From positions 1 to 14,346 of IMG/VR virus record IMGVR_UViG_3300029496_000031: a DNA stretch of 14,346 nucleotides; one strand, written 5' to 3'. Source of the stretch: a virus. The translations under genes were made by a program, and so were the position numbers. The notes beneath the pieces are model-generated. The model was not told the origin of the DNA and did no database searches. It saw only the letters and a list, made by a program, of their open reading frames with translations. Shown one piece after another: positions 1 to 13,299 of the stretch (position 1 is the stretch's first letter; each line of letters begins with the position of its first letter).

Positions 1-702
1 GTGATAGAAAACTCCTCATCTGCATGGCTCACCTTTGATGACCTGAACAACACAGAGACTTTTGATATAAAGGACTTCAGCGGCTGCTTTGGCGTAGGCG
101 GCGCCGACCTCTCTATCACAACAGACCTCACGTGCGCCACCATCCTCACCATGGACCGGAATAAGAAGCGGTATGTTTCACAGATGTACTGGCTCCCTGA
201 GGCGAATTTTGATAAGCGAGTCCATGAGGAAAAAATCCCCTATGACAAATGGCTGCAGATGGGACTCCTGAGACTCTGCAGCGGCAGCTCCATCAACTAC
301 CATGATGTCACACTGTGGTTTTTAGAGATGGTGCAGAAGGGAATCACACCGGCCTATATTTACTATGACTCCTACAGCGCCAAGTACTGGGTTGAAGAAA
401 TGCAGAATAATGGGTTTAATATGGTGAGATGTATCCAGGGCGCCAAGACGCTGAGTCTCCCCATGCAAGCCCTGGGCGTGGACCTGAAGGATAAGAAAGT
501 AAACTATAACAACTCGCCAATCCTGAAATGGTGCCTTTCCAATACCGGCATACTGACAGACCGGAACGGAAACATTGTGCCTATCAAGAACCAGAGCGCA
601 AAGTACAGGATTGATGGGACAGCCTCGCTGCTGGACGCCTATGTGGGCCTTACCGACCACTATGAGGAACTCTGCAATACCCTTCCCTATCAGAAAATTT
701 GA
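1..702 (+). CDS. terL: Terminase large subunit, C-terminal RNaseH-like nuclease part. It continues from 13300..14247 across the circular junction. Stop TGA at 700-702.
   Basis: Same frame as the 3' end of the window (positions 14248-14346 = 1-99). Acidic nuclease-type motifs (DLSITTDLTCATILTMDRN..., ...IDGTASLLDA) are typical of the terminase nuclease domain. Confidence 0.85.
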   Translation: MIENSSSAWLTFDDLNNTETFDIKDFSGCFGVGGADLSITTDLTCATILTMDRNKKRYVSQMYWLPEANFDKRVHEEKIPYDKWLQMGLLRLCSGSSINYHDVTLWFLEMVQKGITPAYIYYDSYSAKYWVEEMQNNGFNMVRCIQGAKTLSLPMQALGVDLKDKKVNYNNSPILKWCLSNTGILTDRNGNIVPIKNQSAKYRIDGTASLLDAYVGLTDHYEELCNTLPYQKI

Positions 703-716
703 AAGGAGAAACAGCC

Positions 717-1043
717 ATGAAACACCTGATTAAAGACAAGAAAATAGACCTCTATTACATGGAAAAGACACCGGACGGCCAAGGCGGATACAGGGCCGGA
801 TGGACACTGAAGGCACAGGGGCTATGGTGCTACACCAAGCAGCTCTCTGAAGAGCTCATTGCCAGATTTGCGACACTCAACCGCCAGGAGACCAGGCAAT
901 TTGTTATCAACCATCGTGAGATAGGAAACCCCAGCACAGTAAGAATCAAATACCGGGGGAACATGTACGCCATCACCAGAGTGGACACCAAGGACGACTA
1001 CAACGGCGATATTTTCCTATACGGCGATGTACTCAAGAAATAG
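717..1043 (+). CDS. Head closure / head-tail adaptor protein (SPP1 gp16 / HK97 head-closure family-like), 108 aa. ATG at 717 is preferred over the in-frame TTG at 699.
   Basis: RBS AAGGAG (703-708) 8 nt before ATG 717. Size and C-terminal pattern ...VRIKYRG..Y.I..VD....N.D..L.. resemble head-closure proteins. It is the last gene of the head module and is followed by a strong terminator. Confidence 0.5.
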   Translation: MKHLIKDKKIDLYYMEKTPDGQGGYRAGWTLKAQGLWCYTKQLSEELIARFATLNRQETRQFVINHREIGNPSTVRIKYRGNMYAITRVDTKDDYNGDIFLYGDVLKK

Positions 1044-1052
1044 AAGGAACAG

Positions 1053-1092
1053 GAAGAACGGATAGTATAAAAATATCCGTTCTTTTCTTTTG
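1053..1092 (+). terminator. Rho-independent terminator after the head module
   Basis: Perfect 11-bp stem AAGAACGGATA (1054-1064) / TATCCGTTCTT (1074-1084) with a 9-nt loop, followed by TTTTCTTTT. Confidence 0.75.
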
Positions 1093-1107
1093 CTTACTTT
1101 AGTAAAC
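1092..1107. promoter_or_regulatory. Palindromic site GCTTACT-TT-AGTAAAC upstream of parA (motif family C; second copy at 8217-8234). Candidate operator or parS-like centromere.
   Basis: Inverted repeat read directly. The right arm AGTAAACC is identical to the right arm of the 8217-8234 palindrome. Type Ib par loci usually place centromere/operator repeats upstream of parA. Confidence 0.35.
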
Positions 1108-1119
1108 CTAAAGAACATA

Positions 1120-1180
1120 GTGATATCTGAGTATAGAAAAAATTTATAATATTCAACCGTAGGGAAAAAGCATATAATAA
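1120..1180 (+). promoter_or_regulatory. AT-rich region with candidate sigma-A -10 hexamers (TATAAT at 1145-1150 and 1173-1178) for the parA operon
   Basis: Two TATAAT hexamers 60-90 bp upstream of the parA ATG. The -35 elements are weak, so the exact promoter is uncertain. Confidence 0.3.
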
Positions 1181-1235
1181 GACATGAAAAACCACAATGA
1201 TATATTGTAAACCATTTTTGAAAGGAAGGGAAGGT

Positions 1236-1979
1236 ATGAAGGTTATAAGCATTATGAACCAGAAAGGCGGCACAGGTAAAACCACAGTGACACTGAACCT
1301 GGCAGCCGCCTATGCGCTGGATGGAAGCCGTGTGCTCATGATGGACCTTGACAGCCAGGGCAGCCTCACAGCGGCCACCTGTGCCTTCAGTGAGCAGGAG
1401 CCATCTACCTATGAAGTCATTGCCGGAGATGTGAAATTGACAGACGCCATAAAAACGCTTAAAACAGGGCTTTCCATCGTTCCAACAGACAACAGGCTAT
1501 TACTTCTCAAGGAGACGGGAGAAGCACGCCAGAGGGGCCGAATCAAGCGAATTTTGAAGGGTATAGAGACAGATTATGATTATGTTTTCATTGACTGCCC
1601 CCCTCATCTTGCTATAGACACCATCATGGCCCTGTCTGCCTCAGACTATGCCATCATACCGGTGCAGACCAATTATCTATCAATGGCCGGGCTGGCCCAG
1701 ATGATGGATAGCATAAAATACCTTCAGGACAAAAACAAAGCGCTCCAAGTCGGAGCCATCGTGCCCACATTCGTGAGAAAGACCAACCTTGACCGCTATG
1801 TATTGTCATGTATCCGAGAGGTGTATCCTGATTTATTAACAGAATCGCATATCTCGCAATCCGTGCTTTTGGCAGAGGCACCGCTTTTCCAGAAAGATAT
1901 ATTTAGCTACAAGCCCCATAGCAAAGGCGCAAAGGAATTTACAGCGCTGCACAATGAACTGGTGCATAGGGGCATTTAA
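1236..1979 (+). CDS. parA: ParA/Soj-family partition ATPase (type Ib, no N-terminal HTH), 247 aa. Start at ATG 1236, not the upstream ATG 1197.
   Basis: Deviant Walker A NQKGGTGKTT. RBS GGAAGGGAAGG sits just upstream of ATG 1236. Length and motifs are typical of small plasmid ParA. Confidence 0.9.
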   Translation: MKVISIMNQKGGTGKTTVTLNLAAAYALDGSRVLMMDLDSQGSLTAATCAFSEQEPSTYEVIAGDVKLTDAIKTLKTGLSIVPTDNRLLLLKETGEARQRGRIKRILKGIETDYDYVFIDCPPHLAIDTIMALSASDYAIIPVQTNYLSMAGLAQMMDSIKYLQDKNKALQVGAIVPTFVRKTNLDRYVLSCIREVYPDLLTESHISQSVLLAEAPLFQKDIFSYKPHSKGAKEFTALHNELVHRGI

Positions 1980-1998
1980 TAGAAAAGGAGAGATAACC

Positions 1999-2232
1999 AT
2001 GAGAGACATTGTAAAGACTATTGAGAAACATGATTTTGAAATCCCAGACAAGTATGACCTGACCATGGAAGAGGTACAGGCCATCATAGAGCACTCCCAG
2101 GGAAAGAGCGATCTGGGCACCCAGCTCAATATGATTTATGCCGCCTTCGCTGCAGGATTTATCCTGGGAAGCAAGGCAACGGAAAAGGGAAATTTCAAAG
2201 CACCTAAGATGGAAAAAGCAGAAGGGAGATAA
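1999..2232 (+). CDS. Small hypothetical protein (77 aa), paralogue of the next gene. Possible ParA partner or centromere-binding protein by position.
   Basis: RBS AAAAGGAGAG before ATG 1999. Shares the motif AAF..G[FY][IV][LM]G.[KR]ATEKG.[FY] with the 2238-2459 product. Confidence 0.55.
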   Translation: MRDIVKTIEKHDFEIPDKYDLTMEEVQAIIEHSQGKSDLGTQLNMIYAAFAAGFILGSKATEKGNFKAPKMEKAEGR

Positions 2233-2237
2233 TTGTC

Positions 2238-2459
2238 ATGGCTAGAAATCTTGAAAAAACAGTATCACTTGTAAGAAATGGCAGAGCGTGCTCAGTTGTT
2301 CCGGAATACGACATCCCCGGCAGCGACATCATGAAGCTGATGAAAAAGGCACAGTCAGGGGAAGCCTATGACGCAATCATGGCAGCCTTCAATTATGGCT
2401 ATGTAATGGGCCACCGGGCCACCGAGAAGGGCAAGTATACCGAACTGAAAGACGCTTGA
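2238..2459 (+). CDS. Small hypothetical protein (73 aa), tandem paralogue of 1999-2232
   Basis: RBS AAGGGAG 9 nt before ATG 2238. C-terminal AAFNYGYVMGHRATEKGKY aligns with AAFAAGFILGSKATEKGNF of the upstream gene. Confidence 0.55.
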   Translation: MARNLEKTVSLVRNGRACSVVPEYDIPGSDIMKLMKKAQSGEAYDAIMAAFNYGYVMGHRATEKGKYTELKDA

Positions 2460-2463
2460 AAAT

Positions 2464-2529
2464 GTTTCATAAATATTTCTTCTCCGTGCCTTTTGTGCTA
2501 TAATAAGGGTATAGAAACATTTATGAAAC
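2464..2529 (+). promoter_or_regulatory. Extended -10 promoter (TGcTATAAT, 2496-2504) flanked by inverted copies of a 16-bp motif GAAAC-ATTTAT-GAAAC (2464-2479 on the minus strand, 2514-2529 on the plus strand; motif family A). Putative operator/promoter of gene 2548.
   Basis: Read directly. One motif overlaps the -35 position and the other lies just downstream of the predicted TSS. The same motif recurs upstream of terS (12806-12837, 12947-12962). Confidence 0.5.
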
Positions 2530-2547
2530 ATGGAAGGAGCGGACATC

Positions 2548-3009
2548 ATGAAGAATTTAACCAAAGGAACCTCAATGACAGACTGGACGGACAAGGAGAT
2601 AGACTCCATCATGTGCGGATCCCCGGCAGAAGCCCTGAGCTACAAGGGGCCAGTGGAAGCCCTGGACAAAGAGAGGGAAAGAGTAACTGCCCTCATTGAG
2701 CAGCTCATGGGCTCAAAGGCTAAGGGAGTAAGCAAGGCAATCGACTTCCTGGAAACCTACCGGAGAATCCTATTTCTGAGAAGCCTCAGACTCAGGGAAG
2801 GCACAGAAGCTGCCCCCCGGAAGATCTACACAGTGAGGGACCTCTCAAACCGGTACGTTGTCAGCCTTCAGGCCATGACCGGCTGGCTCCGGCGCTATGA
2901 GAAGAGAATCAACGCCACCCGGCCGGAAAAGCCTCTCCTCTACAAAGAAGGCCGGGCCTGGGTAGTGACTGAGGAAGCGCTGCCCATCATTGACCATCTC
3001 CACAAATGA
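2548..3009 (+). CDS. Putative DNA-binding regulator with C-terminal HTH_17/excisionase-like helix-turn-helix, 153 aa
   Basis: RBS GGAAGGAG 8 nt before ATG 2548. The C-terminal segment IYTVRDLSNRYVVSLQAMTGWLRR...EGRAWVVTEEAL fits the HTH_17 (MerR/Xis-like) pattern. The operator-flanked promoter lies immediately upstream. Confidence 0.4.
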   Translation: MKNLTKGTSMTDWTDKEIDSIMCGSPAEALSYKGPVEALDKERERVTALIEQLMGSKAKGVSKAIDFLETYRRILFLRSLRLREGTEAAPRKIYTVRDLSNRYVVSLQAMTGWLRRYEKRINATRPEKPLLYKEGRAWVVTEEALPIIDHLHK

Positions 3010-3022
3010 AAGGATGAACAAC

Positions 3023-3319
3023 ATGGATTTAAAGAAAATCGAGAAAGAGAAGAACAACATACTGAAGAAAGAGGCGCCAAAAAATGCGCCAGAAGCCGCC
3101 TCTAAGCCTTCCCGTGAAGAAGGGTATAGAAGAGCTACCTTCATTGTGCAGGAAAGGCTCCTAGACCTCTTCAACCTCTGGTGTGAATCGAATGGCTATT
3201 CAAAGAAATTTGCAATCAATAAACTTCTCTATGACGCCCTGTCTGGTAAGACAAAGGAAGTTGACCAGATGAGGGCCCAGAAGAAGGAAAATGAAAAAAT
3301 TTCTAATTTTGACTTTTGA
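3023..3319 (+). CDS. Small protein with a putative ribbon-helix-helix fold after a lysine-rich N-terminal tail (ParG/CopG/Arc-like), 98 aa
   Basis: RBS AAAGGA 8 nt before ATG 3023. The segment RRATFIVQERLLDLFNLWCESNGYSKKFAINKLLYDAL has the beta-strand plus two-helix layout of RHH proteins. Function (partition CBP or repressor) is inferred. Confidence 0.35.
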   Translation: MDLKKIEKEKNNILKKEAPKNAPEAASKPSREEGYRRATFIVQERLLDLFNLWCESNGYSKKFAINKLLYDALSGKTKEVDQMRAQKKENEKISNFDF

Positions 3320-3329
3320 GGACCTGAAC

Positions 3330-3539
3330 ATGTTTGAATACGACGGAAAGAAATACTATACCTCAGATGAAGCGGCAGAGAGGCTGCACCGCAATCCTGT
3401 TACCATCCGCCGCCTCTGCAAAAGGGGCACCATTGAGGCGTTCAAATACGGCACCCACTGGCTGATGACCAAAGAGGCCATGGACAAATTTTTTTATGAG
3501 CATTGCTTGAAGATGAAGGAGGGCGAGCATGATGGATGA
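3330..3539 (+). CDS. AlpA/Xis-like HTH_17 DNA-binding protein, 69 aa. Start at ATG 3330, not the upstream in-frame ATG 3291.
   Basis: RBS GAGGA 7 nt before ATG 3330. The segment YYTSDEAAERLHRNPVTIRRLCKRGTIEAFKYGTHWLMTKEAMDKF matches the HTH_17 consensus. AlpA-like genes precede pri/rep genes in PICIs. Confidence 0.55.
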   Translation: MFEYDGKKYYTSDEAAERLHRNPVTIRRLCKRGTIEAFKYGTHWLMTKEAMDKFFYEHCLKMKEGEHDG

Positions 3540-5307
3540 AGCGTTAATGAAATACCTCAAACCCTCAGATGAAGCGGCGTATAAGAAGGAAATGGAGAAG
3601 GCACAGGGGGATTATGCAGCCGCTGAAGCCGCTATAAAGGGGGCTCTGGAAAACAGCCAGAATTTAGAAACCATAACCAAGCTGTCTACAAAGCTGGCAA
3701 GCTCCTCTACAAGAGTACTGGAAGTAGAGAACAAATATAAGAAGCTCGCACAGGAACACCGGAAGGCTGATGAAGGCGCAAATAGGAAAAAGTTTCTCAA
3801 GGCCATGCTTAAAAAAATGCGTGCATTAATCCCAGAAGCGTATGAGACCGCCCGTATCATGAATGACCTTGCGGTAAAGGGCAAGGTACCTGTGCCCACG
3901 GGAAAGGGATTTGACTGGTTTAAATCCGAGCTTAAAGAATCCATTGAAGAAATGGAAGCAAAAACATCGGAAAAGCCGGATAATGAATTGCTAAAAGCTA
4001 TTCTCTATGACTTGCATGTTCAGTATGAAAATTATCATGCACCATCTGATTATGTGTTCAGTCATTACCGACTTTATGCAGAATTTATTTACTCAGTATT
4101 CCCTGAGTATAATGAGCAAATTTTTTCAATACTTGAGGACATAGAGAAGAACTTCCCTGACGAATACCGAAAATTTGAAAGCGATCTCCTCGCCCTTCTG
4201 AATGAAAAAAATAAAATTGTAGAAGAATACCAGAGAAAGAAGAATCTGGAAAAAGTCAGAGATAATCTTCCCCGTGCGGGAGCAGTAATGCCGAATATTA
4301 TCGCCGTCGGGATAGACCATTTGCATAACAAAGTCTATAAAGAAGAAAGGATACCTTTCCTGACCGACAACAGGCCCACTCAAATTGAATGTACCGTAAA
4401 TAATCGCACCCAAAAAAAGATAATGTTTATGATAACAAGGAACCCGCACGATTATATGACCGATGAAGATAAGGAAGTCTTTACAAGGGCCGATATTGAG
4501 ATGTTTGATGACATCATCTCAAGTATTCCACAATCCTACAAAAGTAAAACATGCCTACATATCCCCATTAGCATAATAGCAAGAAATGCCTATCCACTCA
4601 GGGGGAACCAAAAGCGAAACGTAGGTAAAAAGTATCTGGACGAAACAGAAAAAAGAGTGCAGCTGCTACTTGATACAGAAATTGAAATAAAGGGCCTGGA
4701 AGCGTATCTGAACGCAAATACACTTGCAAATAATGAAGATATCCTCATGTTCATGAAAAACAAAGGCCGCTCCCGTCTCCTGGGCGGCTCCATTGACGAC
4801 GTTGTTATCAATGGCCAACTATCCAGAGTCCTTACACTGGATATGACACCCATTGTATGGGTAATAGCACGGGAAAAAGGCTATTACATCCCCCTAGCTA
4901 GAGATTTGAGAATACTCCCCCTGAAATGCCCGCTCTTTGTAAATAACCTCAGTAGGCGGCTTACGGTCCACCTTCTGGAAATGGTACGAAAAGGATTTAC
5001 ATACTGCCAGGTAAATATGGATAAGGTTTATGAATGGGCGGGAAAAACAGAAGCCATACAGAAGGCTAAGCAGCCCAGAAACATGAAAGCCAAATGCAGA
5101 AACTGGCTCTTCAAGCTGCTGGACTACTATATCAAGCTATGGAAAGAAGCAGATGAAGATAAGAGAAAAATTTTACTGCCGATCAAGGAATATGAACCCG
5201 TCAAAGGTGACAACCAAGAATTCACAGCGGTTAGAATAGAATTTTATCCCCATAGCTACCTCGAGAAAAAGAGCCCCAAAAGTATAGAACAAAAATTCGA
5301 CGACTAA
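3529..5307 (+). CDS. Large hypothetical protein (592 aa). The N-terminal ~130 aa is charged coiled-coil-like. The C-terminal region may be a winged-helix-like DNA-binding domain. Candidate iteron-binding replication initiator, by context only.
   Basis: Long ORF with RBS GAAGGAGGG. Its start overlaps the stop of the upstream gene (ATGATGGATGA). It is immediately followed by 22-bp iterons. No recognised catalytic motifs, and no tyrosine or serine recombinase signatures. Confidence 0.3.
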   Translation: MMDEALMKYLKPSDEAAYKKEMEKAQGDYAAAEAAIKGALENSQNLETITKLSTKLASSSTRVLEVENKYKKLAQEHRKADEGANRKKFLKAMLKKMRALIPEAYETARIMNDLAVKGKVPVPTGKGFDWFKSELKESIEEMEAKTSEKPDNELLKAILYDLHVQYENYHAPSDYVFSHYRLYAEFIYSVFPEYNEQIFSILEDIEKNFPDEYRKFESDLLALLNEKNKIVEEYQRKKNLEKVRDNLPRAGAVMPNIIAVGIDHLHNKVYKEERIPFLTDNRPTQIECTVNNRTQKKIMFMITRNPHDYMTDEDKEVFTRADIEMFDDIISSIPQSYKSKTCLHIPISIIARNAYPLRGNQKRNVGKKYLDETEKRVQLLLDTEIEIKGLEAYLNANTLANNEDILMFMKNKGRSRLLGGSIDDVVINGQLSRVLTLDMTPIVWVIAREKGYYIPLARDLRILPLKCPLFVNNLSRRLTVHLLEMVRKGFTYCQVNMDKVYEWAGKTEAIQKAKQPRNMKAKCRNWLFKLLDYYIKLWKEADEDKRKILLPIKEYEPVKGDNQEFTAVRIEFYPHSYLEKKSPKSIEQKFDD

Positions 5308-5383
5308 CAACAAACGAACACGGGACTAACAACAACCATACACGGGACTAACAACAACCCTACACGGGACTAACAACAACCAT
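5296..5383. repeat. Iteron array of three complete and one partial 22-bp direct repeats. Units ACACGGGACTAACAACAACC at 5318-5337, 5340-5359 and 5362-5381, with a partial unit at ~5296-5317 overlapping the 3' end of the upstream gene. Putative replication origin.
   Basis: Read directly. The period is exactly 22 bp, about two helical turns. The array sits at the 3' end of, and just downstream of, the 592-aa gene and upstream of the primase-helicase gene. Confidence 0.7.
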
Positions 5384-5453
5384 ACACACCCTCGAATCTC
5401 GAAAGCACGGTGAATACTGGCAGAAATGGCATTTTTCAGGGGCCCACTATTAT

Positions 5454-5527
5454 ATGTATACTCTGTATACATTGTATCCGGCCCTTGCCCGCAAGGCTGG
5501 CGCCCTTGCGGGCTGGCGGGCCGCCGC
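5454..5527. repeat. Ori-associated structures. An AT palindrome ATGTATAC-TCT-GTATACAT (5454-5472; motif family B) is followed by a GC-rich island. The island holds a 10-bp stem hairpin GCCCGCAAGG (5487-5496) / CCTTGCGGGC (5504-5513) and an imperfect 21-bp direct repeat (5482-5502 / 5503-5523).
   Basis: Read directly. The local GC content is far above the element average. Both ORFs called here (5410-5604 plus strand, 5326-5529 minus strand) are low-complexity and implausible. Confidence 0.5.
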
Positions 5528-5632
5528 ATAAACTAGATTTAGTGAAAAGAGCTCATCATCATCCCCGTGCTTTTTCTATCCGGAAAGAAGAAGCGCTCCA
5601 ATGAACCTGTTTTTTACCATAGGGAGTTTAAC

Positions 5633-8005
5633 ATGAAGGAAAACGACATAGTAAAAGAATATCGATTCAAGAAAGTATGGACAAACTTTTCCATTCTGGA
5701 AGTTGACGGACGTAAAACGAAAATACCAGTGAACCCTTATAACAGTCAGAACGGCAGCACAACTAACCCAAATAGCTGGAGCACCTATGACAAAGCCATG
5801 GAGAAAATCGGCCAACCGTGCTTTCTCTATTCTAAGAAGGCCAAAAGGCACTACCGGGGAACCATAGACGGCATAGGGATAGTGTTCACCGGCTGTGACT
5901 TAATGGGCCTCGACTTTGACCATGTACTGGATGAATCCGGAAACCTTGACCCGGCAGTGAAGGCCATTGTAGAAAAGGCTAATTCCTATACTGAAATCTC
6001 CCCATCCGGCCATGGGCTCCATATCCTGGCTAAAGGGAAACGCCTTGAACCGACCGGAGCGCAGAGAGTGTCTAAAGGAGAAACCTCAAAAGGAACTACA
6101 CCGGCCCCCTGTGAAATTGAATTTTATGACACTAGCAGATACTTTACTTTCACCGGCAAGGAATACTCCATCAGCAGCCCCCTGGCAGAGCGCACCAAGG
6201 AATTTGATGAGATTTACAGAACGTACATGAAGGTAAAAAAGGCGGAGATACCTACACCCGTCACCGTGCCTTCTCTACCTAAAAGCAGCAAGCCTCTGAC
6301 TGTTTCCGAAGTGCTGGATAAGATGCTTAAAGCGAGCGGCAGAATGGGGGAGATTAACAGGAAGCTTTATGCCGGTGATATTGATATCCCTGAGTATTAC
6401 CATACAGATGGGGAGCACCAGGGAGAACCTGATAAAAGCAAATGCGACCTTCATCTGGCAATGTCCGCCTATTATTTCTCAAATCTGGATGACAACATTA
6501 CCCGGCAGATTATGAATAGCAGCGGCCTTTATGACAGTAAATGGGAGGAAGGGGGGCACTGGACAACAGACCCCAAAAGGGCCGGGCTCTCCTGGATTGA
6601 GGGCACTATGGTAATCGCCCGTGAAAAAGCTGCTGCCCGTCTTGCCAAGGATCAGCAGAAGAACCGTATGACGGAAAGTTTTAAAGATAAATGGATTACA
6701 GACATGCAGAAAAGAGTTATCTTTAATCTTAATGAGAGTATGCCACAACTGAAGGAAGCCCTTAAGAAAATATTGAATAACCGCCTTTCTGAATTGACTA
6801 TCCAGGATGGGGACATTGTGAAAGAGCTCTATGACGTAGCTCATTATGAATTGAATCCTTTTGCTCCGAAACCTCTTCCCAAGCCTAAAGAAGTCTCCAT
6901 GACGGATTACCTTAAAACGGGAGAGCTGGAAAACAGAATTGCCTACTTTGCAAAGTACAAGGACCGGAAAACCGGATACAAGAACCTTGACCAGTATCTC
7001 ACCCTCTATCCGGGCCTTGCCATCCTGGGTGCTGTGCCTTCTCTGGGAAAAACAACCTTCTGCATGAACCTGGCTGAGAATCTTGTAAGGTCCGGCAACA
7101 CTGTGCTTTATATCGCATTGGAACAGGATCCCATGGAACTGGCCACCAAGGTGCTCGCTAGAAATATCTTTGAAAGATATGGTGATAAAACAGGGCTCAC
7201 CAACATTGATATCAAAAATGGGAAATCTGACAAATACCTGGACCTGGTAAAGGCTGAAATGGCTAAGAATCTCTCAGGACTTCACCTGGTGAAAGGGAAT
7301 TTCAACACCACTGTGGAAGATATTGTTGAACTTATTGACGACTTTATAGCTACCCGGAAAGTGACACCCATAGTATTTATTGACTATCTGCAGCTCATCG
7401 CTCCATCATCCGCTGAGAAGTCTGACGACGGAGTGGACTATAGAAGCCGCACGCAGAGAGAAATCTGTGACCACTCGCTGAAGGTGCTGAAGTCTTACCA
7501 GATGAAGGACCCTGACACTTCCCTATTAATCTGGCTTGTTTCCTCTTTTAACCGTAACAGCTACCAGGCACCGGCTGATTATAGCTCCTTCAAAGAAACC
7601 GGCGGTATTGAATACACCTGTGATTATGTATTCGCTCTGCAGCCTTCTGTCATGAGTGAGGACTCATATTTCTATAAAGAATCCAAGACAAAGAGCGGCG
7701 GCGTAACTCAGAAAGAAACCACCAACTATGAAAGACAGAAGAAATTTGAGGACGCTGTAAAAGGCCAGCCAAGGGACAGCAAGGATAGACCAATAAGCGG
7801 CCTAAAGAATTACCGTGAAATCCAGTTTAAGAGTATCAAGAACCGGAACGGCATGCAGAAATTCAACGCCTTTTTCCGTTACCATCCGGCCGCTGATTCT
7901 TTTGTAATCTCGACCGCATACGGCGCCAGTGACTATCCGGTAGAAGCCTCTGATTTCACGGACGACCAGGCAGATGAGGAAAGCCTGGATGACCTTTGGG
8001 AGTAA
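5633..8005 (+). CDS. Bifunctional primase-polymerase (AEP/prim-pol N-terminal domain) fused to a DnaB-like helicase ATPase domain, 790 aa. Start at ATG 5633.
   Basis: RBS AGGGAG 6 nt before ATG 5633. Prim-pol motifs K.P (KIPVNP), DxD (GLDFDH) and sGxGlH (SPSGHGLHIL). The C-terminal half has Walker A GAVPSLGKTT and a DnaB-type Walker B IVFIDYLQLI. Confidence 0.75.
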   Translation: MKENDIVKEYRFKKVWTNFSILEVDGRKTKIPVNPYNSQNGSTTNPNSWSTYDKAMEKIGQPCFLYSKKAKRHYRGTIDGIGIVFTGCDLMGLDFDHVLDESGNLDPAVKAIVEKANSYTEISPSGHGLHILAKGKRLEPTGAQRVSKGETSKGTTPAPCEIEFYDTSRYFTFTGKEYSISSPLAERTKEFDEIYRTYMKVKKAEIPTPVTVPSLPKSSKPLTVSEVLDKMLKASGRMGEINRKLYAGDIDIPEYYHTDGEHQGEPDKSKCDLHLAMSAYYFSNLDDNITRQIMNSSGLYDSKWEEGGHWTTDPKRAGLSWIEGTMVIAREKAAARLAKDQQKNRMTESFKDKWITDMQKRVIFNLNESMPQLKEALKKILNNRLSELTIQDGDIVKELYDVAHYELNPFAPKPLPKPKEVSMTDYLKTGELENRIAYFAKYKDRKTGYKNLDQYLTLYPGLAILGAVPSLGKTTFCMNLAENLVRSGNTVLYIALEQDPMELATKVLARNIFERYGDKTGLTNIDIKNGKSDKYLDLVKAEMAKNLSGLHLVKGNFNTTVEDIVELIDDFIATRKVTPIVFIDYLQLIAPSSAEKSDDGVDYRSRTQREICDHSLKVLKSYQMKDPDTSLLIWLVSSFNRNSYQAPADYSSFKETGGIEYTCDYVFALQPSVMSEDSYFYKESKTKSGGVTQKETTNYERQKKFEDAVKGQPRDSKDRPISGLKNYREIQFKSIKNRNGMQKFNAFFRYHPAADSFVISTAYGASDYPVEASDFTDDQADEESLDDLWE

Positions 8006-8104
8006 AATGGAAGCAGCGAATGAGTGGAATAGAGCGTAGAAATGAACAAAAATGCACATCCCCTCTCCGTGCTTTTCCCAAGGCGCCTAAGAAATCCCGG
8101 AATT

Positions 8105-8125
8105 ATGTATACATTTTGGTATAAT
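8105..8125 (+). promoter_or_regulatory. Promoter with extended -10 TGgTATAAT (8117-8125), overlapped upstream by a perfect 10-bp palindrome ATGTATACAT (8105-8114; motif family B, also at 5454-5472)
   Basis: Read directly. The -35 is weak, but the TG extension is present. Confidence 0.45.
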
Positions 8126-8131
8126 GGCTAA

Positions 8132-8209
8132 AACAGCCAGGAAAGGTACATAGACTGGGGAATGATATCAGAGATTGACAGGCTCTCTTATGGGCCTGTT
8201 TTTCTTTTG
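8132..8209 (+). ncRNA. Candidate small RNA (~75-80 nt) running from the 8117-8125 promoter to a terminator-like hairpin
   Basis: The promoter's -10 ends at 8125. A 6-bp stem ACAGGC (8178-8183) / GCCTGT (8194-8199) is followed by TTTTTCTTTTG (8199-8209). There is no ORF with an RBS in between. Confidence 0.25.
8178..8209 (+). terminator. Weak rho-independent terminator-like hairpin plus U-tract in the primase-to-head-module intergenic region
   Basis: Stem ACAGGC/GCCTGT with a 10-nt loop, followed by a T-rich run. Confidence 0.4.
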
Positions 8210-8216
8210 TGTAAAA

Positions 8217-8234
8217 GGTTTACTGTAGTAAACC
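8217..8234. promoter_or_regulatory. Perfect palindrome GGTTTACT-GT-AGTAAACC (motif family C; related copy at 1092-1107 upstream of parA)
   Basis: 8-bp perfect inverted arms read directly. It lies ~50 bp upstream of the second TGgTATAAT promoter. Confidence 0.45.
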
Positions 8235-8282
8235 ATGGTAATTTTCAGTATATCTGTATTCCTTTCAAATATGTTTCTATTA

Positions 8283-8291
8283 TGGTATAAT
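8283..8291 (+). promoter_or_regulatory. Extended -10 promoter TGgTATAAT (-35-like TTTCAA at 8263-8268). Likely promoter of the head-morphogenesis operon (8348 onward).
   Basis: Read directly. It has the same TTATGGTATAATG core as the 8113-8126 promoter, and the next gene starts ~55 bp downstream. Confidence 0.45.
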
Positions 8292-8347
8292 GTAAGTAAC
8301 AAAGTTTTATGTTAAATGCAAAAGGAAATGAAAGGAAGGGAAAGAAA

Positions 8348-8695
8348 ATGGAAGAACAGAAAGAAAATGAAGTGCATGAAAGTACTGAAAAAACTGTTTC
8401 AAGAAATTTAGGTAAAACAATCGTAGTGAGACATCTCAGAATCAGGAAGTATATTATTGGTGACTCTGCCAGCAGTACAGCAAAGACCATTTTTAACGCA
8501 GAAATCCCCACATACTTTGCCCTTCCTGGCATGTTCACCTACATTGATCCCCGTTATCCTTCTATTGTCCGATTTGTAAATATGGCTGATGTTCTTGAAA
8601 TCGGAATGGACGTCAACAATATGAGTGATTTCCTCAATCTCCGCACACTTATGTTACGCAATAAGGAGGTGCCTTTCTTCAGATGGCCGAGGTAA
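8348..8695 (+). CDS. Hypothetical protein (115 aa), first gene of the morphogenesis operon. Start at ATG 8348.
   Basis: RBS AAGGAAGGG 7 nt before ATG 8348. No recognisable motifs. Confidence 0.45.
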   Translation: MEEQKENEVHESTEKTVSRNLGKTIVVRHLRIRKYIIGDSASSTAKTIFNAEIPTYFALPGMFTYIDPRYPSIVRFVNMADVLEIGMDVNNMSDFLNLRTLMLRNKEVPFFRWPR

Positions 8696-8967
8696 ACAGA
8701 ACTAAAGTGACAGCAGAATATATCATGCTGCTGGCCCATCGAAACAGACCGGATGAACCGGCCATGACCATGCTCAACCACCCTACCATCCTTCTGGATC
8801 ATCCCGTTATCAAGGGCATGCTCCCAGTGGTTACAGATAGGCTGCCGAATGATGTGAAATATATCCGCATTGATGAAATCAAGGCCCTGGGATTTAAGAA
8901 GGGAGACCTTGAATCTATGGCCCTGGTAGCTGAAGCATTTGACTGGGCCGTGCCTTCTGCCGACTGA
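8683..8967 (+). CDS. Hypothetical protein (94 aa), overlapping the previous gene by 13 nt. The start is uncertain.
   Basis: ORF on the same strand as the whole operon. AAGGAGG at 8663-8669 is 13 nt from ATG 8683 (long spacer). The minus-strand ORFs overlapping here are rejected. Confidence 0.35.
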   Translation: MAEVNRTKVTAEYIMLLAHRNRPDEPAMTMLNHPTILLDHPVIKGMLPVVTDRLPNDVKYIRIDEIKALGFKKGDLESMALVAEAFDWAVPSAD

Positions 8968-8981
8968 GAGAAGGTGCAATA

Positions 8982-10172
8982 GTGAATTTCCTTTCCCGAA
9001 TCTTTAGCCGGAAAGCGACAGCAACCGGCACAAAGCTCATAAATGAAAATACCGGGCGATTCACAGCCTACGATGGAAATATCTATGAAAATGATATTTT
9101 CCGGGCTGGTGTGGACGCCATCGCTAGAAATTGCGGAAAGCTGAAGGGCTCCCATATCGTCATATCAGGCGATGATAGAGCCCAGGGGGACAGCCGTATC
9201 AACCGTATTTTACAGATACGGCCTAACCCGTACATGAGCGCCTATGATTTCCTGTATAAGATGGTGACTCACCTCTATATCGACAATAACGCCTTTGCGC
9301 TCCTCTCCTTCAATGCACAGGGGCAGCTTGACGCCATTTATCCCATCACGGCCACCAGCGTGCAGGTGCTGAGAGACGCCACGGGCTCCCTCTACTGTGC
9401 CTTCACCATGCCGGACGGCGGCAGATTTACCTTTGCCTATGACAACCTCATACATCTGAGGCGGTTTTTCAATTCCAATGACGTACTGGGAGACGGCAAC
9501 GGCGCAATCAGGCCAGGGCTTGAACTCGCCCAGGCCCAGAATGATGGAATCATCAACGGCATTAAGAGCGGCGCCAGTATCCGGGGGATACTGAAATACA
9601 CCACAGTCATGGCTCCTGAGCAGCTGAAGAAAGATAAAGACCGCTTTATAGCCGACTATCTTGATGTATCGAACAATGGCGGCGTGGTAGCGACCGATAC
9701 AAAAGCCGAATATACGCCCATTGAATCCCATCCCGTGACTGTATCCGGCGATGAGATGAACGCTGCAAAGAGCAAGATTTTCAACTATCTGGGAGTCACA
9801 GAGCCAGTAGTAAATTCCAGTTACACAGAAGATCAGTTTTCTGCTTTTTACGAATCCACCATAGAGCCCATTGCTATGGCCCTTTCCCAGGAAATGACCT
9901 ACAAGATTTTCACCGCCCGTGAAATTGCCTTTGGCAACCAGATTATTTTTGAATCTGGAACCATCCAATTCACATCCAACAAGACGAAAATCAACCTGAT
10001 AAGCAACATGCTCCCCTATGGCGTTCTTACCATCAACCAGGCGCTTGAAATCCTGAACCTTCCCTCTGTGCCGGATGGTGACAGGCGGCTCCAGGCCCTC
10101 AACATGATTGACGCCCAAAAGGCGCTCAAGTACCAAGTTGGGGAACAGCAGGAAGGAGAGAAGGAAGAATGA
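8982..10172 (+). CDS. Portal protein, HK97 family (396 aa), GTG start
   Basis: RBS GAGAAGG 7 nt before GTG 8982. Sequence features typical of Phage_portal (ILQIRPNPYMSAYDFLYKMVTHLYIDNNAFALL...). Size ~400 aa. It immediately precedes the prohead protease. Confidence 0.85.
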   Translation: MNFLSRIFSRKATATGTKLINENTGRFTAYDGNIYENDIFRAGVDAIARNCGKLKGSHIVISGDDRAQGDSRINRILQIRPNPYMSAYDFLYKMVTHLYIDNNAFALLSFNAQGQLDAIYPITATSVQVLRDATGSLYCAFTMPDGGRFTFAYDNLIHLRRFFNSNDVLGDGNGAIRPGLELAQAQNDGIINGIKSGASIRGILKYTTVMAPEQLKKDKDRFIADYLDVSNNGGVVATDTKAEYTPIESHPVTVSGDEMNAAKSKIFNYLGVTEPVVNSSYTEDQFSAFYESTIEPIAMALSQEMTYKIFTAREIAFGNQIIFESGTIQFTSNKTKINLISNMLPYGVLTINQALEILNLPSVPDGDRRLQALNMIDAQKALKYQVGEQQEGEKEE

Positions 10173-10729
10173 AAGAAAAGCGATTCGCAAAAATCGAGAT
10201 CAGAAGCGATAACAGCAAGCAGCTGGTACTCACCGGACGGCCGGTGATTCTTAACCAGCCCACTGTTATCGCTGAAGATTATAAGGAAGTCATTGCTCCC
10301 GGTGCTCTGGACGGCACGGACTTGACAGATGTCAGGCTTTTATACAACCATGACCTGTCCACCGTGCCTTTAGCCAGGACGCCCAAGACAATGGCTCTCA
10401 CAGTCGACCCGGCAGGGCTGACATTCACCGCTACACTCCCAGATACGGAATACGGCCGCACCGTTTACGAAGCTGTGAAGCGTGGCGATTTATCCGGCAT
10501 GAGCTTTAGCTTTAAGGTACCGGAAGGGGGAGACTCTTATGATCCGGCCACAAACACCCGGACCATCACCAAGATTGAAAAAATCTATGAGTGCTCCATT
10601 GTGCCTTTCCCAGCGTATCCCCAGACATCGGTAGAAGCCAGGGACGCCATCAAGGCCGGCAGGACAAGATGGAAAGCAAAACAGCATGCTAAACTGCTTA
10701 TTCACCAGATTATGAAAGTGAGGTTTTAA
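10169..10729 (+). CDS. Prohead maturation protease, HK97 family (Peptidase S78/U35), 186 aa
   Basis: ATG overlaps the portal stop (GAATGA). Family-typical sequence (LLYNHD..., GDLSGMSFSFKV) and canonical position between portal and major capsid protein. Confidence 0.8.
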   Translation: MKEKRFAKIEIRSDNSKQLVLTGRPVILNQPTVIAEDYKEVIAPGALDGTDLTDVRLLYNHDLSTVPLARTPKTMALTVDPAGLTFTATLPDTEYGRTVYEAVKRGDLSGMSFSFKVPEGGDSYDPATNTRTITKIEKIYECSIVPFPAYPQTSVEARDAIKAGRTRWKAKQHAKLLIHQIMKVRF

Positions 10730-10731
10730 CC

Positions 10732-11949
10732 ATGAAATTCAAGACTATTGCTGAAGCATTTAACTACTACAGAAACCACAGCGCCGCTGATATTGAAAAG
10801 AGAGCGGCAGCCATCAATGAACTCATTGAAAAGGACCCCAGCGCCGATATTGACGCCCTCAACATCGAACTGGAAGGACTGAAACAGGCCAAGGAAAACC
10901 TGGAACAGCGTGCCCAGAAATTCAAGCACACTGAAGGAGCTCCCCTTTCCGGTGGCATGCAGCCCCGGCAGCAGGTACTCACTCCTGAAAATGTATTCGA
11001 CTCCAAGGAATATAGAAGCGCATTTTTCAAGAATCTGATGGGCCGCAGCCTGAACGCCCAGGAAAAAGAAGCCTTCACCATGGCCCAGGGAGTAGTGGAA
11101 AAGCGTGCCGGTACATTCATTTCTGCAACGGACGCCGCAGCCGTGCTGCCGACCACCACCCTCAATGAAATCATTAAGAAAGCACGGACCATGGGCGGCC
11201 TTCTCCCAGAAGTGCGCTCTTTCTCCGTGCCTTCTAAAATTGCTATCCCGGTAGCGACACCTACCAATAAAGCAGCCTGGCATGTAGAAGGTGCTGAAGT
11301 CGCTGCAGATAAAGCAGCACTCTCCTCTGTTATCTTTGACCCTAATGAGCTCATCAAGGTTTTCTCCCTCTCTGCAAAAGCAAGCACCATGAGCATTGCA
11401 GCATTTGAGGCGTACCTGGTGGATGAACTCTCCGCTTGCGTGATGGACGCCCTGGATGATTCTCTCATTAATGGCACCGGTGCAGGCCAGGGCAAAGGAC
11501 TGGAAAAAGGAATCACCTGGAACGCAGACAACACAGTAACCACCTCTGCCCTCTCCTATGCAGATATCGTTTCCCTCATCGCCAAACTGAAGAGAGGTTA
11601 TTCCAACGGCGCCAAGTTTGCAATGAATAATGCAACACTCTACACCAAGATTTACGGACTGGTAGACGGCAATAAGAGACCTATCTTCATTACAGACGCC
11701 CAGAACCAGACTGTGGGCAGAATCCTTTCCTTCCCGGTAATCGTGGATGACAACATCCCGGATGATGTTATCTACTTTGGTAACTTCAAGGCCTACCTGG
11801 GATACAATCTGCCGGAAGGTATCATGATTGAATCCTCTCGTGCCTCTTCCTTCAAGCAGGGGCTGATTGACTACAGAGCGCTGGCGATCGCCGACACCCA
11901 GCCGCTTGTAACAGAAGCATTTGTAAAGCTGACCAAGACTGCAGGCTGA
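10732..11949 (+). CDS. Major capsid protein, HK97 fold, with an N-terminal coiled-coil delta/scaffolding region, 405 aa
   Basis: RBS AGTGAGG 8 nt before ATG. The N-terminal ~100 aa is coiled-coil (AAINELIEKDP...LEGLKQAKENLEQRAQKF), followed by an HK97-like body. Position after the protease and a strong terminator after the gene. Confidence 0.85.
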   Translation: MKFKTIAEAFNYYRNHSAADIEKRAAAINELIEKDPSADIDALNIELEGLKQAKENLEQRAQKFKHTEGAPLSGGMQPRQQVLTPENVFDSKEYRSAFFKNLMGRSLNAQEKEAFTMAQGVVEKRAGTFISATDAAAVLPTTTLNEIIKKARTMGGLLPEVRSFSVPSKIAIPVATPTNKAAWHVEGAEVAADKAALSSVIFDPNELIKVFSLSAKASTMSIAAFEAYLVDELSACVMDALDDSLINGTGAGQGKGLEKGITWNADNTVTTSALSYADIVSLIAKLKRGYSNGAKFAMNNATLYTKIYGLVDGNKRPIFITDAQNQTVGRILSFPVIVDDNIPDDVIYFGNFKAYLGYNLPEGIMIESSRASSFKQGLIDYRALAIADTQPLVTEAFVKLTKTAG

Positions 11950-11962
11950 TAATTTCAATTGA

Positions 11963-12006
11963 AGAGGGCACGGGGTATAAATTGCCCTCTGCCCTCTTTT
12001 CTTTTT
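11963..12006 (+). terminator. Rho-independent terminator after the major capsid gene
   Basis: Stem AGAGGGCA (11963-11970) / TGCCCTCT (11983-11990) with a 12-nt loop, then GCCCTCTTTTCTTTTT. Confidence 0.6.
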
Positions 12007-12022
12007 ACAAGGAGAAACCATC

Positions 12023-12292
12023 ATGACATTGGAAGAAGCGTGCAACGTATTGAGAGTAGACCCAGGAACAAATGACGATTTAATCAACAGCCTTATAAAG
12101 GCCATTCCATCCTACATTGAACTGAAAACCGGAATGACGGAAAAGGCACAGGAAAATGAGCCGCTTGTAAAAACAGTATCCGGCTTTATTCTGCAGCTGT
12201 GGTATTTTAGCGACAACATTGATGATAAAGTATTGAACCGGACTATTGACTCCCTTCTCTGTGCCATCACACTGAAGGCAAAACAGGAGTGA
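12023..12292 (+). CDS. gp6-like head-tail connector (Phage_connect_1-like), 89 aa
   Basis: RBS AAGGAG 8 nt before ATG. The N-terminus MTLEEACNVLRVDPGTNDDLINSLIKAIPSYIELKTG is typical of the phage gp6/DNA-packaging head-tail connector family. Position after the major capsid protein. Confidence 0.55.
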   Translation: MTLEEACNVLRVDPGTNDDLINSLIKAIPSYIELKTGMTEKAQENEPLVKTVSGFILQLWYFSDNIDDKVLNRTIDSLLCAITLKAKQE

Positions 12293-12303
12293 AGGTGAGG
12301 AGA

Positions 12304-12356
12304 GCGCATTTACATGTCTGAGAAAATCTCAGACATACATGCGCCGCCAGAGGCGG
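12304..12356. promoter_or_regulatory. Long imperfect hairpin (GCGCAT..ACATGTCTGAG-AAAAT-CTCAGACAT..ATGCGC) plus a small GC hairpin (CCGCC-AGA-GGCGG) just upstream of the HNH gene RBS
   Basis: Read directly. There is no downstream U-tract, so it is not a canonical terminator. Possible processing, attenuation or protein-binding element. Confidence 0.3.
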
Positions 12357-12372
12357 AAAGGAGCAAGCCATC

Positions 12373-12756
12373 ATGACCAGAAAAGACTTCTACAACAGCA
12401 AAGAATGGAAACGCACAGCAAGGGCCTATCTGCAATCGCAGCACTATGTGTGCGAGCGATGCGGAAGGCCGGCAGTCATCTGCCACCATAAGAAATACCT
12501 CAATGACAGGAACTACACTGATCCGGCTGTCTCCCTGTGCTTTGATAATCTGGAAGCACTCTGCCAGGACTGCCACAACAAAGAGCACAGCCTGAGGAGG
12601 CCGCTGGTAAAGTTTGATGAGGAAGGCAACGTGACCGGCTGCAAAGAATCAAAAGACCAAAGAGATTTCAGGCTGGAAAGGGAAGCCATGGAAAAGCTTT
12701 TTAAGAGAGAGAATTCACTACAGGCCCTCTCAGAGCGCTTGCGCAGAAGTTTATGA
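12373..12756 (+). CDS. HNH endonuclease (packaging-associated), 127 aa
   Basis: RBS AAAGGAG 9 nt before ATG. Cys/His zinc-finger HNH motifs CERCG...HH...CQDCHNKEH. It sits next to terS-terL, as in HK97-like cos phages. Confidence 0.85.
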   Translation: MTRKDFYNSKEWKRTARAYLQSQHYVCERCGRPAVICHHKKYLNDRNYTDPAVSLCFDNLEALCQDCHNKEHSLRRPLVKFDEEGNVTGCKESKDQRDFRLEREAMEKLFKRENSLQALSERLRRSL

Positions 12757-12931
12757 GTAATTTATCAAAAGATTTTCTGCAGCGCCTCTGAGACGATTTT
12801 AGAGTATTTCATAAAAGTTTCGAAACATTTATGAAAAAGGGAAGGGGGCCTCTCAAATTTTTTCTCTGAAATCCATACCGGCGTCAGCACCTCGGAAAAC
12901 CTCTCCCAGGATTTCCCCATAAGGGGGACAA
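12757..12931. other. HNH-terS intergenic region, a candidate DNA-packaging (cos/pac) recognition region. It contains a 32-bp near-perfect palindrome ATTTCATAAAAGTTTC|GAAACATTTATGAAAA (12806-12837; motif family A) and an inverted repeat GAAATCC (12868-12874) / GGATTTC (12909-12915).
   Basis: Repeats read directly. The positional argument is that cos sites of HNH-dependent phages lie next to the HNH/terS genes (established knowledge). The assignment itself is inference. Confidence 0.3.
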
Positions 12932-13294
12932 ATGGAAAAACCTATGGAAACATTTATGAAAGATGGTGAAACAAGCATGAAAATCAATAGGACATACACC
13001 GATATTTACAACCTCATACCGGAACAGAAGCAGCCAATAGCCAGGAAGCTCATCAATGAACTCCAATTCATGGAAAGGACTCTCACGGCCCTAAGAAAAG
13101 TGGTGGACTCTGAAGGAGTCACTGAACATTTTATTAATGGGAAACAGGATTTCTGGCGTGAAAGCACGGCCCTAAAGAGCTACAACACCACAATCCAGCG
13201 GTACAGCTCCCTTTCCAAGCAGCTCACAGACATGGTTGATAAGACAGCAGAGGCAGAGAATAATCCGGTGCTGGACTTCATCAAAGGGGAGTGA
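12932..13294 (+). CDS. terS: Terminase small subunit (P27-family-like), 120 aa from ATG 12932. An alternative start at ATG 12977 gives 105 aa (MKINR...).
   Basis: Small ORF immediately upstream of terL and downstream of HNH. SD AAGGGGG lies only 4 nt before ATG 12932, and a weak GGTGA lies 7 nt before ATG 12977. The 5' end overlaps a third copy of motif A (12947-12962). Confidence 0.55.
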   Translation: MEKPMETFMKDGETSMKINRTYTDIYNLIPEQKQPIARKLINELQFMERTLTALRKVVDSEGVTEHFINGKQDFWRESTALKSYNTTIQRYSSLSKQLTDMVDKTAEAENNPVLDFIKGE

Positions 13295-13299
13295 TCCCC

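Follow-up and report, generated by a model that had tools for sequence, protein, structure and literature searches.

What is a short repeated motif doing both around a promoter and next to the packaging genes of a small viral replicon? The question is raised by positions 2464–2529 of IMG/VR virus record IMGVR_UViG_3300029496_000031, of which positions 1–14,346 were analyzed (14,346 nucleotides, hereafter the window); the element appears to be a plasmid-maintained capsid-forming satellite. The initial annotation had listed five copies of a 16-bp motif, two of them abutting as a palindrome and two flanking an extended −10 element, and all of this was found to be present. The left copy of the pair (2464–2479, minus strand, GAAATATTTATGAAAC) begins 5 nt past the stop codon of the small open reading frame (ORF) sm2, and the right copy (2514–2529, plus strand, GAAACATTTATGAAAC) lies just 5' of the ribosome-binding site (RBS) GGAAGGAG (2532–2539). 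Between them stands the extended −10 element TGcTATAAT (2496–2504, plus strand), 9 nt ahead of the right copy and 44 nt before the ATG at 2548. Downstream of the HNH gene, the copies at 12806–12821 (minus strand, GAAACTTTTATGAAAT) and 12822–12837 (plus strand, GAAACATTTATGAAAA, hereafter site i) abut in a 32-bp palindrome with 20-nt arms that are 95% complementary. The remaining copy (12947–12962, plus strand, GAAACATTTATGAAAG, hereafter site ii) ends 15 nt before the start codon of terS, the gene of the small terminase subunit, and 2 nt ahead of its RBS GGTGA. A weaker copy with two mismatches (8262–8277, minus strand, GAAACATATTTGAAAG) is additional to those listed before.

The motif takes the form GAAAY-N6-GAAAN, that is, two 5-bp half-sites 11 bp apart that occur in either orientation, and this spacing places both half-sites on one face of the helix. 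The earlier description as a direct repeat of GAAAC is correct in its spacing, but the second half-site is a full GAAAC in two copies only and elsewhere ends in A, G or T. The 15-mer GAAACATTTATGAAA has three exact copies in the window (starting at 2514, 12822 and 12947), two copies with one mismatch (2465 and 12807, both on the minus strand) and two with two mismatches (8263, minus strand, and 9076). When up to three mismatches are allowed there are 12 matches, compared with 0.77±0.80 expected, and none of 200 dinucleotide shuffles reached 12; the pattern GAAAC-N6-GAAAC with at most one mismatch gives 9 matches against 1.6 expected. With the terS start set at 12977, six of the seven best copies (two mismatches or fewer) are non-coding, although non-coding DNA makes up only 9.4% of the element (binomial P = 4.6e-6). 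A chance origin of the motif is ruled out by the shuffles and by this enrichment. The replication iterons, four 22-bp units at 5302–5387, were considered as the same repeat and rejected, as they differ from the motif in sequence, and the motif region has no match to a known RNA family in Rfam.

The extended −10 element at 2496–2504 stands at a distance from the RBS and start codon that suits a sigma-70 promoter, and it is conserved in relatives. With transcription predicted to start near 2511, the left copy would occupy the region from about −47 to −32, and the right one that from about +4 to +19. Behind the promoter lies an early operon that encodes p153, p98, a protein of the HTH_17 family, p592 and a primase-helicase. 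Sister elements of 14.2–14.7 kb (L202, which equals L211, L205, L207, L208 and L215) were found via homologues of p98 and via exact-sequence look-ups of the HTH_17 and HNH proteins; the window element is the reference for all identities given. In the sisters, the early region is present as a second allele, with identities of 53–55% for p153, about 67% for p98, 97–100% for the HTH_17 protein and 32% for p592, and of about 72% for TerS, and they also show two different capsid-module alleles.

Every sister has the arrangement RTTTC-N6-RTTTC, 16–17 nt, TGnTATAAT, 9 nt, GAAAY-N6-GAAAY, and thus keeps the spacings from the left site to the TG and from the −10 element to the right site. The left site is GTTTCaaaaaaGTTTC in L211, L205, L207, L208 and L215, at the same position and identical to the window at 13 of 16 positions, and the right site is GAAATatatttGAAAC/T, identical at 12–13 of 16. 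Columns were counted between the window and four sisters. The extended −10 element is identical at 8–9 of 9 positions, as TGc/aTATAAT, while the DNA between the left site and the −10 element retains only 4–6 of 21 and that between the −10 element and the right site 3–4 of 9. Within the two sites, the substitutions are confined to the 6-nt spacers and the half-sites are spared. The motif is thus a non-random repeat whose position and half-sites are conserved beside a conserved promoter, in sites that overlap the core promoter and transcription start and are kept independently of the surrounding DNA, as would be expected of operators. The half-sites and the extended −10 element are kept in spite of the divergence of the DNA between them; such behaviour is that of a protein-binding site and agrees with the initial annotation, as does the presence of the motif in the orthologous regions of the sisters.

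One further relative, the 1.4-kb Logan contig L203, joins, within its positions 1–60, the stop region of sm2 directly to the p153 RBS and appears to miss the whole operator–promoter segment. It starts with Illumina adaptor sequence, is possibly an artefact rather than a natural deletion variant, and was not trusted; its HTH_17 protein is only 75% identical and its p98 is 98% identical.

At the packaging locus, the comparison with the sisters changed the start of terS. In the sisters, the gene begins at an ATG equivalent to position 12977, preceded by an in-frame TGA and a conserved RBS, GGTGA, and the start was therefore revised from 12932 to 12977 (terS 12977–13294, plus strand, 105 aa; phrog_1066, E = 3e-26; phrog_2343, terminase small subunit, E = 0.002). 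The longer form had been hinted at by the phrog_1066 alignment, which begins at residue 6 of the long ORF. Site ii is represented in the sisters by an inverted copy, ATTTCaaaaatGTTTC, about 30 nt upstream of the terS ATG. With the sister copy inverted and an in-frame TGA ahead of the ATG, the apparent peptide 'ETFMK' is a by-product of the DNA motif, as had been suggested before, and the conservation is at the level of the DNA and not of the peptide. A start at 12932 with conservation of this peptide was accordingly ruled out by the TGA, the equivalent ATG and the inverted copy. Site i is kept in L205 and L207 at 15 of 18–19 columns within surroundings that are about 50% identical, and the left arm of the palindrome (12806–12821) is not kept in these two sisters (4/16). 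The sisters have a further exact or one-mismatch 15-mer, site iii, 70 nt into terL, the gene of the large terminase subunit; the window lacks it, and the codons differ from those of the window. A weak copy at 12968–12983, overlapping the RBS and start codon of terS, is not kept in the sisters and is probably fortuitous.

A block of 51 nt (12877–12927, plus strand, ACCGGCGTCAGCACCTCGGAAAACCTCTCCCAGGATTTCCCCATAAGGGGG) with motif copies on both sides lies between the HNH gene and terS. It is identical at 48–50 of 51 positions in all sisters, compared with 50–65% in its flanks. In HK97-type phages, the cohesive-end site (cos) is located between HNH and terS, and the block is a candidate for a cis site of this region, probably cos itself or else another essential site. 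A promoter and terminator scan of the window detected neither a sigma-70-type promoter nor a terminator in the gap. In L211, a recombination breakpoint between window-type and sister-type DNA falls at the 3' edge of the block. The HNH–terS gap reaches 400–500 nt in some family members and there contains a long conserved inverted repeat (L014, 9505–9800; L021, 4366–4654, with 33-nt arms that are 88% complementary), for which a structured RNA is one possibility and an elaborate cos region another; the window has nothing equivalent.

The weaker copy at 8262–8277 overlaps the −35 of the late promoter (TTCAAA-16-TGgTATAAT, 8264–8291), which precedes the morphogenesis genes and is the top-scoring sigma-70-type promoter of the window (10/12 plus TG). 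Only L211, which matches the window at about 99% in its late region, has this copy as well, and the copy is an uncertain member of the motif.

On balance, we lean towards the interpretation that the motif is a bipartite site for a regulator encoded in the early operon, which would autoregulate this operon and also act at cos/terS. A protein from the element's own early operon would bind the motif in either orientation. The early promoter would rely on its extended −10 element, and with one copy on the −35 region and the other on +4 to +19 the two would form a repressing arrangement whose occupancy should shut the promoter down. As the first genes transcribed encode three small DNA-binding candidates, negative autoregulation of the operon for the regulator, the replication initiator and the primase-helicase is the simplest reading. 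The same protein would keep the packaging region silent or inaccessible during plasmid maintenance, and between HNH and terS it could block transcription that reads through from the late promoter, or else cover or shape cos. From these arrangements we infer protein binding, repression and a role at cos/terS. Autoregulation together with control of packaging had been proposed before. The positions at −47 to −32 and +4 to +19 are as expected for the former, but the copies at the packaging genes bracket a likely cos rather than a recognizable promoter. The regulatory principle itself, with operators that recur around a promoter and close to a packaging site, is conventional.

Several observations weigh against this interpretation. 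The early region exists effectively as two independent alleles, that of the window and that of the sisters, and the footprint therefore amounts to one deep comparison plus minor variants. Given that no sigma-70-type promoter is recognizable between HNH and terS, 'operator' may be the wrong word for the copies found there. The late promoters of L205, L207 and L215, which have diverged, do not carry the copy at 8262–8277. The assignment of p98 to the ribbon-helix-helix (RHH) fold is not demonstrable, with neither a Pfam RHH match nor a sequence match in the PDB at E <= 10. Lastly, a 12-mer screen (at most one mismatch) of 15 other capsid-module relatives revealed a comparable dispersed motif only in L014.

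In this distant family member, the motif is unrelated in sequence (GTAAACATGTAAACA, 14 matches against 0.98 expected, with 8-bp tandem units GTAAACAT). Its sites precede the early promoter, flank a TATAAT ahead of the portal gene and stand right before the terS RBS, a placement which indicates that the dispersed-site architecture recurs with a different sequence. L014 encodes an RHH-like protein of 85 aa followed by an HTH_17 protein, and has no homologue of p153. Within its lineage (L017 and L213) the RHH core and the recognition helix of the HTH_17 protein are both unchanged, and this covariation does not discriminate between the binders. L014 also carries ORFs resembling GIY-YIG/NUMOD-type homing endonucleases in its early region and after terL (848–1906 and 11955–12803). 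A dispersed motif of another relative, CTCTGTGGTTTC in L011, was set aside as a different phenomenon, as it lies inside genes and beside GC-rich stems.

Which protein would bind the motif? Three candidates, p153, p98 and the HTH_17 protein, are encoded directly downstream of the motif-flanked promoter. The initial annotation had named the helix-turn-helix protein at 2548–3009 and the RHH protein at 3023–3319; both are possible, but the HTH_17 protein at 3330–3539 had been missed as a third candidate, as had the two proteins encoded after ParA. We tentatively place p98 first and the HTH_17 protein second, both as possibilities, followed by p153 as a doubtful candidate and then, least likely, by something else. 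None of the candidate regulators has detectable relatives outside the element's own sister group. p592, the putative initiator, was also considered and is unlikely as the binder, as it is only 32% identical between elements with the same motif.

The product of 3023–3319 (plus strand), p98, has 98 aa and combines a Lys/Glu-rich N-terminal tail with an Arc-like core (RRATFIVQERLLDLFNLWCESNGYSKKFAINKLL), which makes it a candidate RHH binder. Residues 34–62 of the core are identical in all sisters except for a conservative E/D exchange at residue 44, while the tails diverge. Its sequence pattern, RRATFIV / ERLLDLFNLWCES / NGYS / KKFAINKLL, fits an RHH protein; the AlphaFold2 (AF2) monomer, however, makes the expected strand a helix. 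An alignment with P22 Arc by hhalign runs in the expected register across helix A, the NG-x-S turn and helix B, but is weak (E = 0.03) and below significance. Foldseek retrieved chains of Arc, ParG, MatP and AvtR with root-mean-square deviations of 0.8–1.6 Å over about 30 residues, but with E > 1, and a homologue search among 1.84 billion representatives returned only the protein's own cluster. The operator of P22 Arc and Mnt (about 21 bp) resembles the motif in its spacing: its subsites are 11 bp apart, are contacted from one DNA face by a dimer of dimers, and overlap a promoter. The Arc subsites are inverted, however, whereas the half-sites described here are direct.

The HTH_17 protein (3330–3539, plus strand, 69 aa) is a winged helix of the excisionase/MerR type that exceeds curated cut-offs, with 45.3 bits for PF12728 (cut-off 27; E = 1e-11) and 34.2 bits for TIGR01764 (cut-off 28.8; E = 2e-8). 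It forms an island of conservation within a mosaic region, at 97–100% compared with 67% and 32% for the flanking p98 and p592, and a search for homologues gave only relatives of 75–97% identity plus one spurious match in a metagenome-assembled genome. Phased direct repeats are the usual targets of HTH_17/excisionase proteins. P2 Cox, 186 Apl, lambda Xis and AlpA from phage-inducible chromosomal islands (PICIs) belong to these small winged-helix proteins, which bind direct repeats in tandem with a phasing of roughly one helical turn, and repress or activate promoters; an HTH_17 protein is likewise found in the early operon here. AlpA is the master activator of Gram-negative PICIs and of capsid-forming PICIs (cf-PICIs) (10.1101/2022.09.08.507074). 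Unlike the systems of Cox and Xis, the window has no integrase or attachment site and hence no excision role for such a protein, and each unit has only two half-sites.

p153 (2548–3009, plus strand, 153 aa), the product of the first gene of the early operon, is an orphan in Pfam, PHROG and NCBIfam, and its homologue search gave one near-identical protein. The AF2 single-sequence model (predicted local distance difference test score 70) shows long N-terminal helices and a C-terminal winged helix-turn-helix with the order beta-alpha-alpha-beta-beta, for which Foldseek returned winged-helix regulators at non-significant scores. The alleles differ in their putative recognition helix, as in SLQAMTGW versus SKQAMSGW. 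As this helix varies while the half-sites do not, p153 is mildly disfavoured as the binder.

The position of the early pair also fits a centromere for the type Ib ParA of the element, which p98 would bind in the manner of omega or ParG, or sm1 or sm2 would bind instead, with any effect on transcription being secondary. This explanation is compatible with an operator and is unlikely, if not strongly so. The element is a circular replicon with ParA and without an integrase, and the pair at 2464–2529 begins 5 nt past the final gene of the ParA operon, in line with the parA-parB-parS order of P1 and F. Omega of pSM19035 and ParG of TP228, global RHH repressors that are also the centromere-binding partners of type Ib ParA proteins, resemble p98 in their small size, their flexible basic N-terminal tail, their Arc-like core and their ParA replicon, and p98 with its disordered basic tail is typical of them. 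They act on short asymmetric repeats, direct and inverted, at several loci of a small replicon including their own promoter. In L014 the RHH-like protein directly follows ParA, and L017, which has no ParA match, has the same RHH core with a shortened tail. However, there are only 2–3 units per locus, fewer than in most centromeres; the ParA promoter has no conserved copy (a three-mismatch match at 1209–1223 is not conserved in L202); p98 and ParA are not neighbours; and profile scans gave no link of sm1 or sm2 to DNA binding. The omega heptads are contiguous (7-bp period) and the ParG boxes have an 8-bp period, whereas the half-sites here are 11 bp apart, and no sequence homology to these systems was detectable. 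Some of the sites, moreover, are at a packaging region, which the omega and ParG plasmids do not have. A more far-reaching version would assign everything to one protein, most plausibly an omega/ParG-like p98, which would repress the early operon, partner ParA at the centromere and gate cos/terS, with displacement by a helper phage licensing packaging. We regard this version as improbable; if true, it would couple plasmid maintenance directly to virion packaging via one cis-element.

The copies near terS could also be viewed as sites of the cosB 'R' type bound by TerS, in which case the promoter pair would serve a late shut-off of early transcription by TerS or would be a secondary recognition locus. 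The copies bracket the conserved 51-nt block where HK97-type cos phages have cos, and lambda cosB consists of three 16-bp gpNu1 sites (R3, R2 and R1) in mixed orientation immediately upstream of the small terminase gene Nu1. The lambda and HK97-type regions are also similar in that a highly conserved block lies alongside, where cos is expected, with the cleavage site being only a candidate here. Unlike in lambda, copies are found on both sides of the conserved block, and better-ordered extra copies are found at a distant promoter. The copies with the best conservation and the most regular placement are those around a promoter 3.7 kb distant, where their spacing from the −10 element is fixed, and the counterpart motif of L014 is most abundant at the portal promoter, not at terS. 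The arrangement of site ii changes between window and sisters in step with the TerS allele, but this switch coincides with those of p153 and p98 and is not diagnostic. Binding by TerS would account for the copies on the terS side but less easily for the exactly spaced pair at the promoter, and it is unlikely to be the explanation. Binding by a protein encoded elsewhere, be it a host response regulator of the OmpR/PhoB type or a regulator of a helper phage that switches the satellite on, seems improbable. OmpR/PhoB-type response regulators bind direct repeats of 5–6 bp that are 11 bp apart, and the direct-repeat, one-turn geometry of the motif matches tandem binding by winged helices, as in the SaeR site GTTAA-N6-GTTAA. 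The half-sites are also the same in the window and the sisters although p153 differs by 46%. The p98 core and the HTH_17 protein are equally unchanged, however, and a binder encoded by the element explains this constancy as well. Nothing points to a regulon of a host or helper either: in IMG/VR the exact 15-mer had only isolated matches in scattered places, which are uninformative, and the whole promoter architecture used as a pattern had no match in GTDB genomes, IMG/VR or JGI metagenomes. Lastly, the inverted repeat might act through its structure, as an invertible promoter switch or as a hairpin in read-through RNA. In the window, the promoter is indeed flanked by 19-nt arms complementary at 18 of 19 positions, but this falls to 14 of 19 in all sisters with no compensatory changes and with intact half-sites. 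The 32-nt segment between the arms is very short for an inversion, all nine assemblies show the promoter segment in the same orientation, and neither a recombinase gene nor an Rfam match was found. A hairpin or an invertible promoter was rejected on the lost complementarity, the missing recombinase and the single orientation, and we attach next to no probability to it.

The preferred interpretation, a regulator from the early operon, has to be seen in the context of the element. The first and last 99 bases of the window are identical, which indicates a closed circle of 14,247 bp with its unique part at 1–14247. Contigs that are 100% identical were obtained from two further samples, one of them labelled human gut metagenome, with k-mer overlaps of 119 and 127 (99 in the window). 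All genes lie on the same coding strand. In order, they encode TerL and a head-completion protein, followed by a terminator-like hairpin, ParA and two small paralogous ORFs, sm1 and sm2; then come the motif pair with its promoter, p153, p98, the HTH_17 protein, p592, the four iterons and the primase-DnaB helicase; and, after a regulatory gap of 300 nt, two small ORFs, portal, S78 protease, major capsid protein, a gp6-like connector, HNH, the further motif copies and TerS. The capsid and packaging set thus comprises portal, protease, major capsid protein, connector, HNH, TerS, TerL and the head-completion protein. Profile scans of the window proteins, including PHROG, gave no tail genes; no integrase was found with Pfam, PHROG or NCBIfam, and no recombinase with Pfam or PHROG. 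ParA has 247 aa and is of the Walker type without an N-terminal helix-turn-helix (type Ib; PF13614, E = 6e-44). The iterons (5302–5387, four tandem 22-bp units, GACTAACAACAACCATACACGG) lie between p592 and the primase-helicase and are likely the replication origin, with p592 as the presumed initiator; the ends of the L211 contig are located within this region. sm1 and sm2 (1999–2232 and 2238–2459) stand directly 3' of ParA, where its centromere-binding partner would be expected, are 28% identical to each other and have a common C-terminal motif AAFxxGxxxGxxATEKG; they matched no family in Pfam, PHROG or NCBIfam.

With a capsid module that comes without tail or integrase genes, on a circle with ParA and iterons, the element looks like a capsid-forming satellite kept as a plasmid. 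Its capsid and packaging module has 45–75% amino acid identity with about 80 IMG/VR contigs, many of them 12–15 kb, to which the early region is not common. Megablast searches against phage and plasmid collections gave no match to the element, nor did GTDB genomes. The element resembles the cf-PICIs, which are 12–15-kb elements with portal, protease, major capsid, connectors, HNH, TerS and TerL and no tail, and its gene set matches theirs (10.1101/2022.09.08.507074). Unlike these, it has no integrase and no chromosomal flanks, being a circular contig with ParA and iterons, and the integration that characterizes cf-PICIs was not found. A 2025 review notes a single plasmid for which phage-satellite status has been shown, and allows for others as yet unknown (PMC12282955); the element itself may therefore be a more interesting object than the motif. 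The motif offers a testable handle on the regulation of this previously uncharacterized gut element, a 14.2-kb, circular, ParA-bearing and tail-less replicon that encodes a capsid. From the identity of the binder, and from whether a helper phage relieves it, one would learn by what means capsid and terminase genes stay quiet in a plasmid-borne satellite, and if regulation, partition and packaging share one cis-element.

Other repeated sequences were observed in the regulatory gaps. A perfect 18-bp palindrome, GGTTTACTGTAGTAAACC, lies at 8217–8234, about 50 bp upstream of the −10 of the late promoter, and a copy with two mismatches lies at 1091–1108 upstream of the ParA promoter (2 matches against 0.03 expected). 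Both are retained in the sisters, which suggests a second regulator with another regulon, consisting of the par operon and the late operon. Further upstream, a consensus extended −10 promoter (TGGTATAAT, 8117–8125) has, no more than about 55 nt downstream, a strong intrinsic terminator (8177–8200 plus a T-run), and only then come the second promoter (8283–8291) and the late genes. This promoter–terminator unit (8117–8210) is kept in the sisters in a shorter form and resembles lambda PR'-tR', a hint that a small RNA may be made or that the capsid genes may be controlled by antitermination. Also over-represented is a third motif, TCTCCGTGCCTTT, which has 7 matches with at most two mismatches against 0.42 expected. 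Its intergenic copies are located between the left operator and the −10 element (2481–2493), just before the start of the primase-helicase (5562–5574) and upstream of the 8117 promoter (8064–8076), with others at 6261, 10359 and 11222. Of these sites, those at 5562–5574 and 8064–8076 have CACCGTGCCTT as their counterpart in the sisters.

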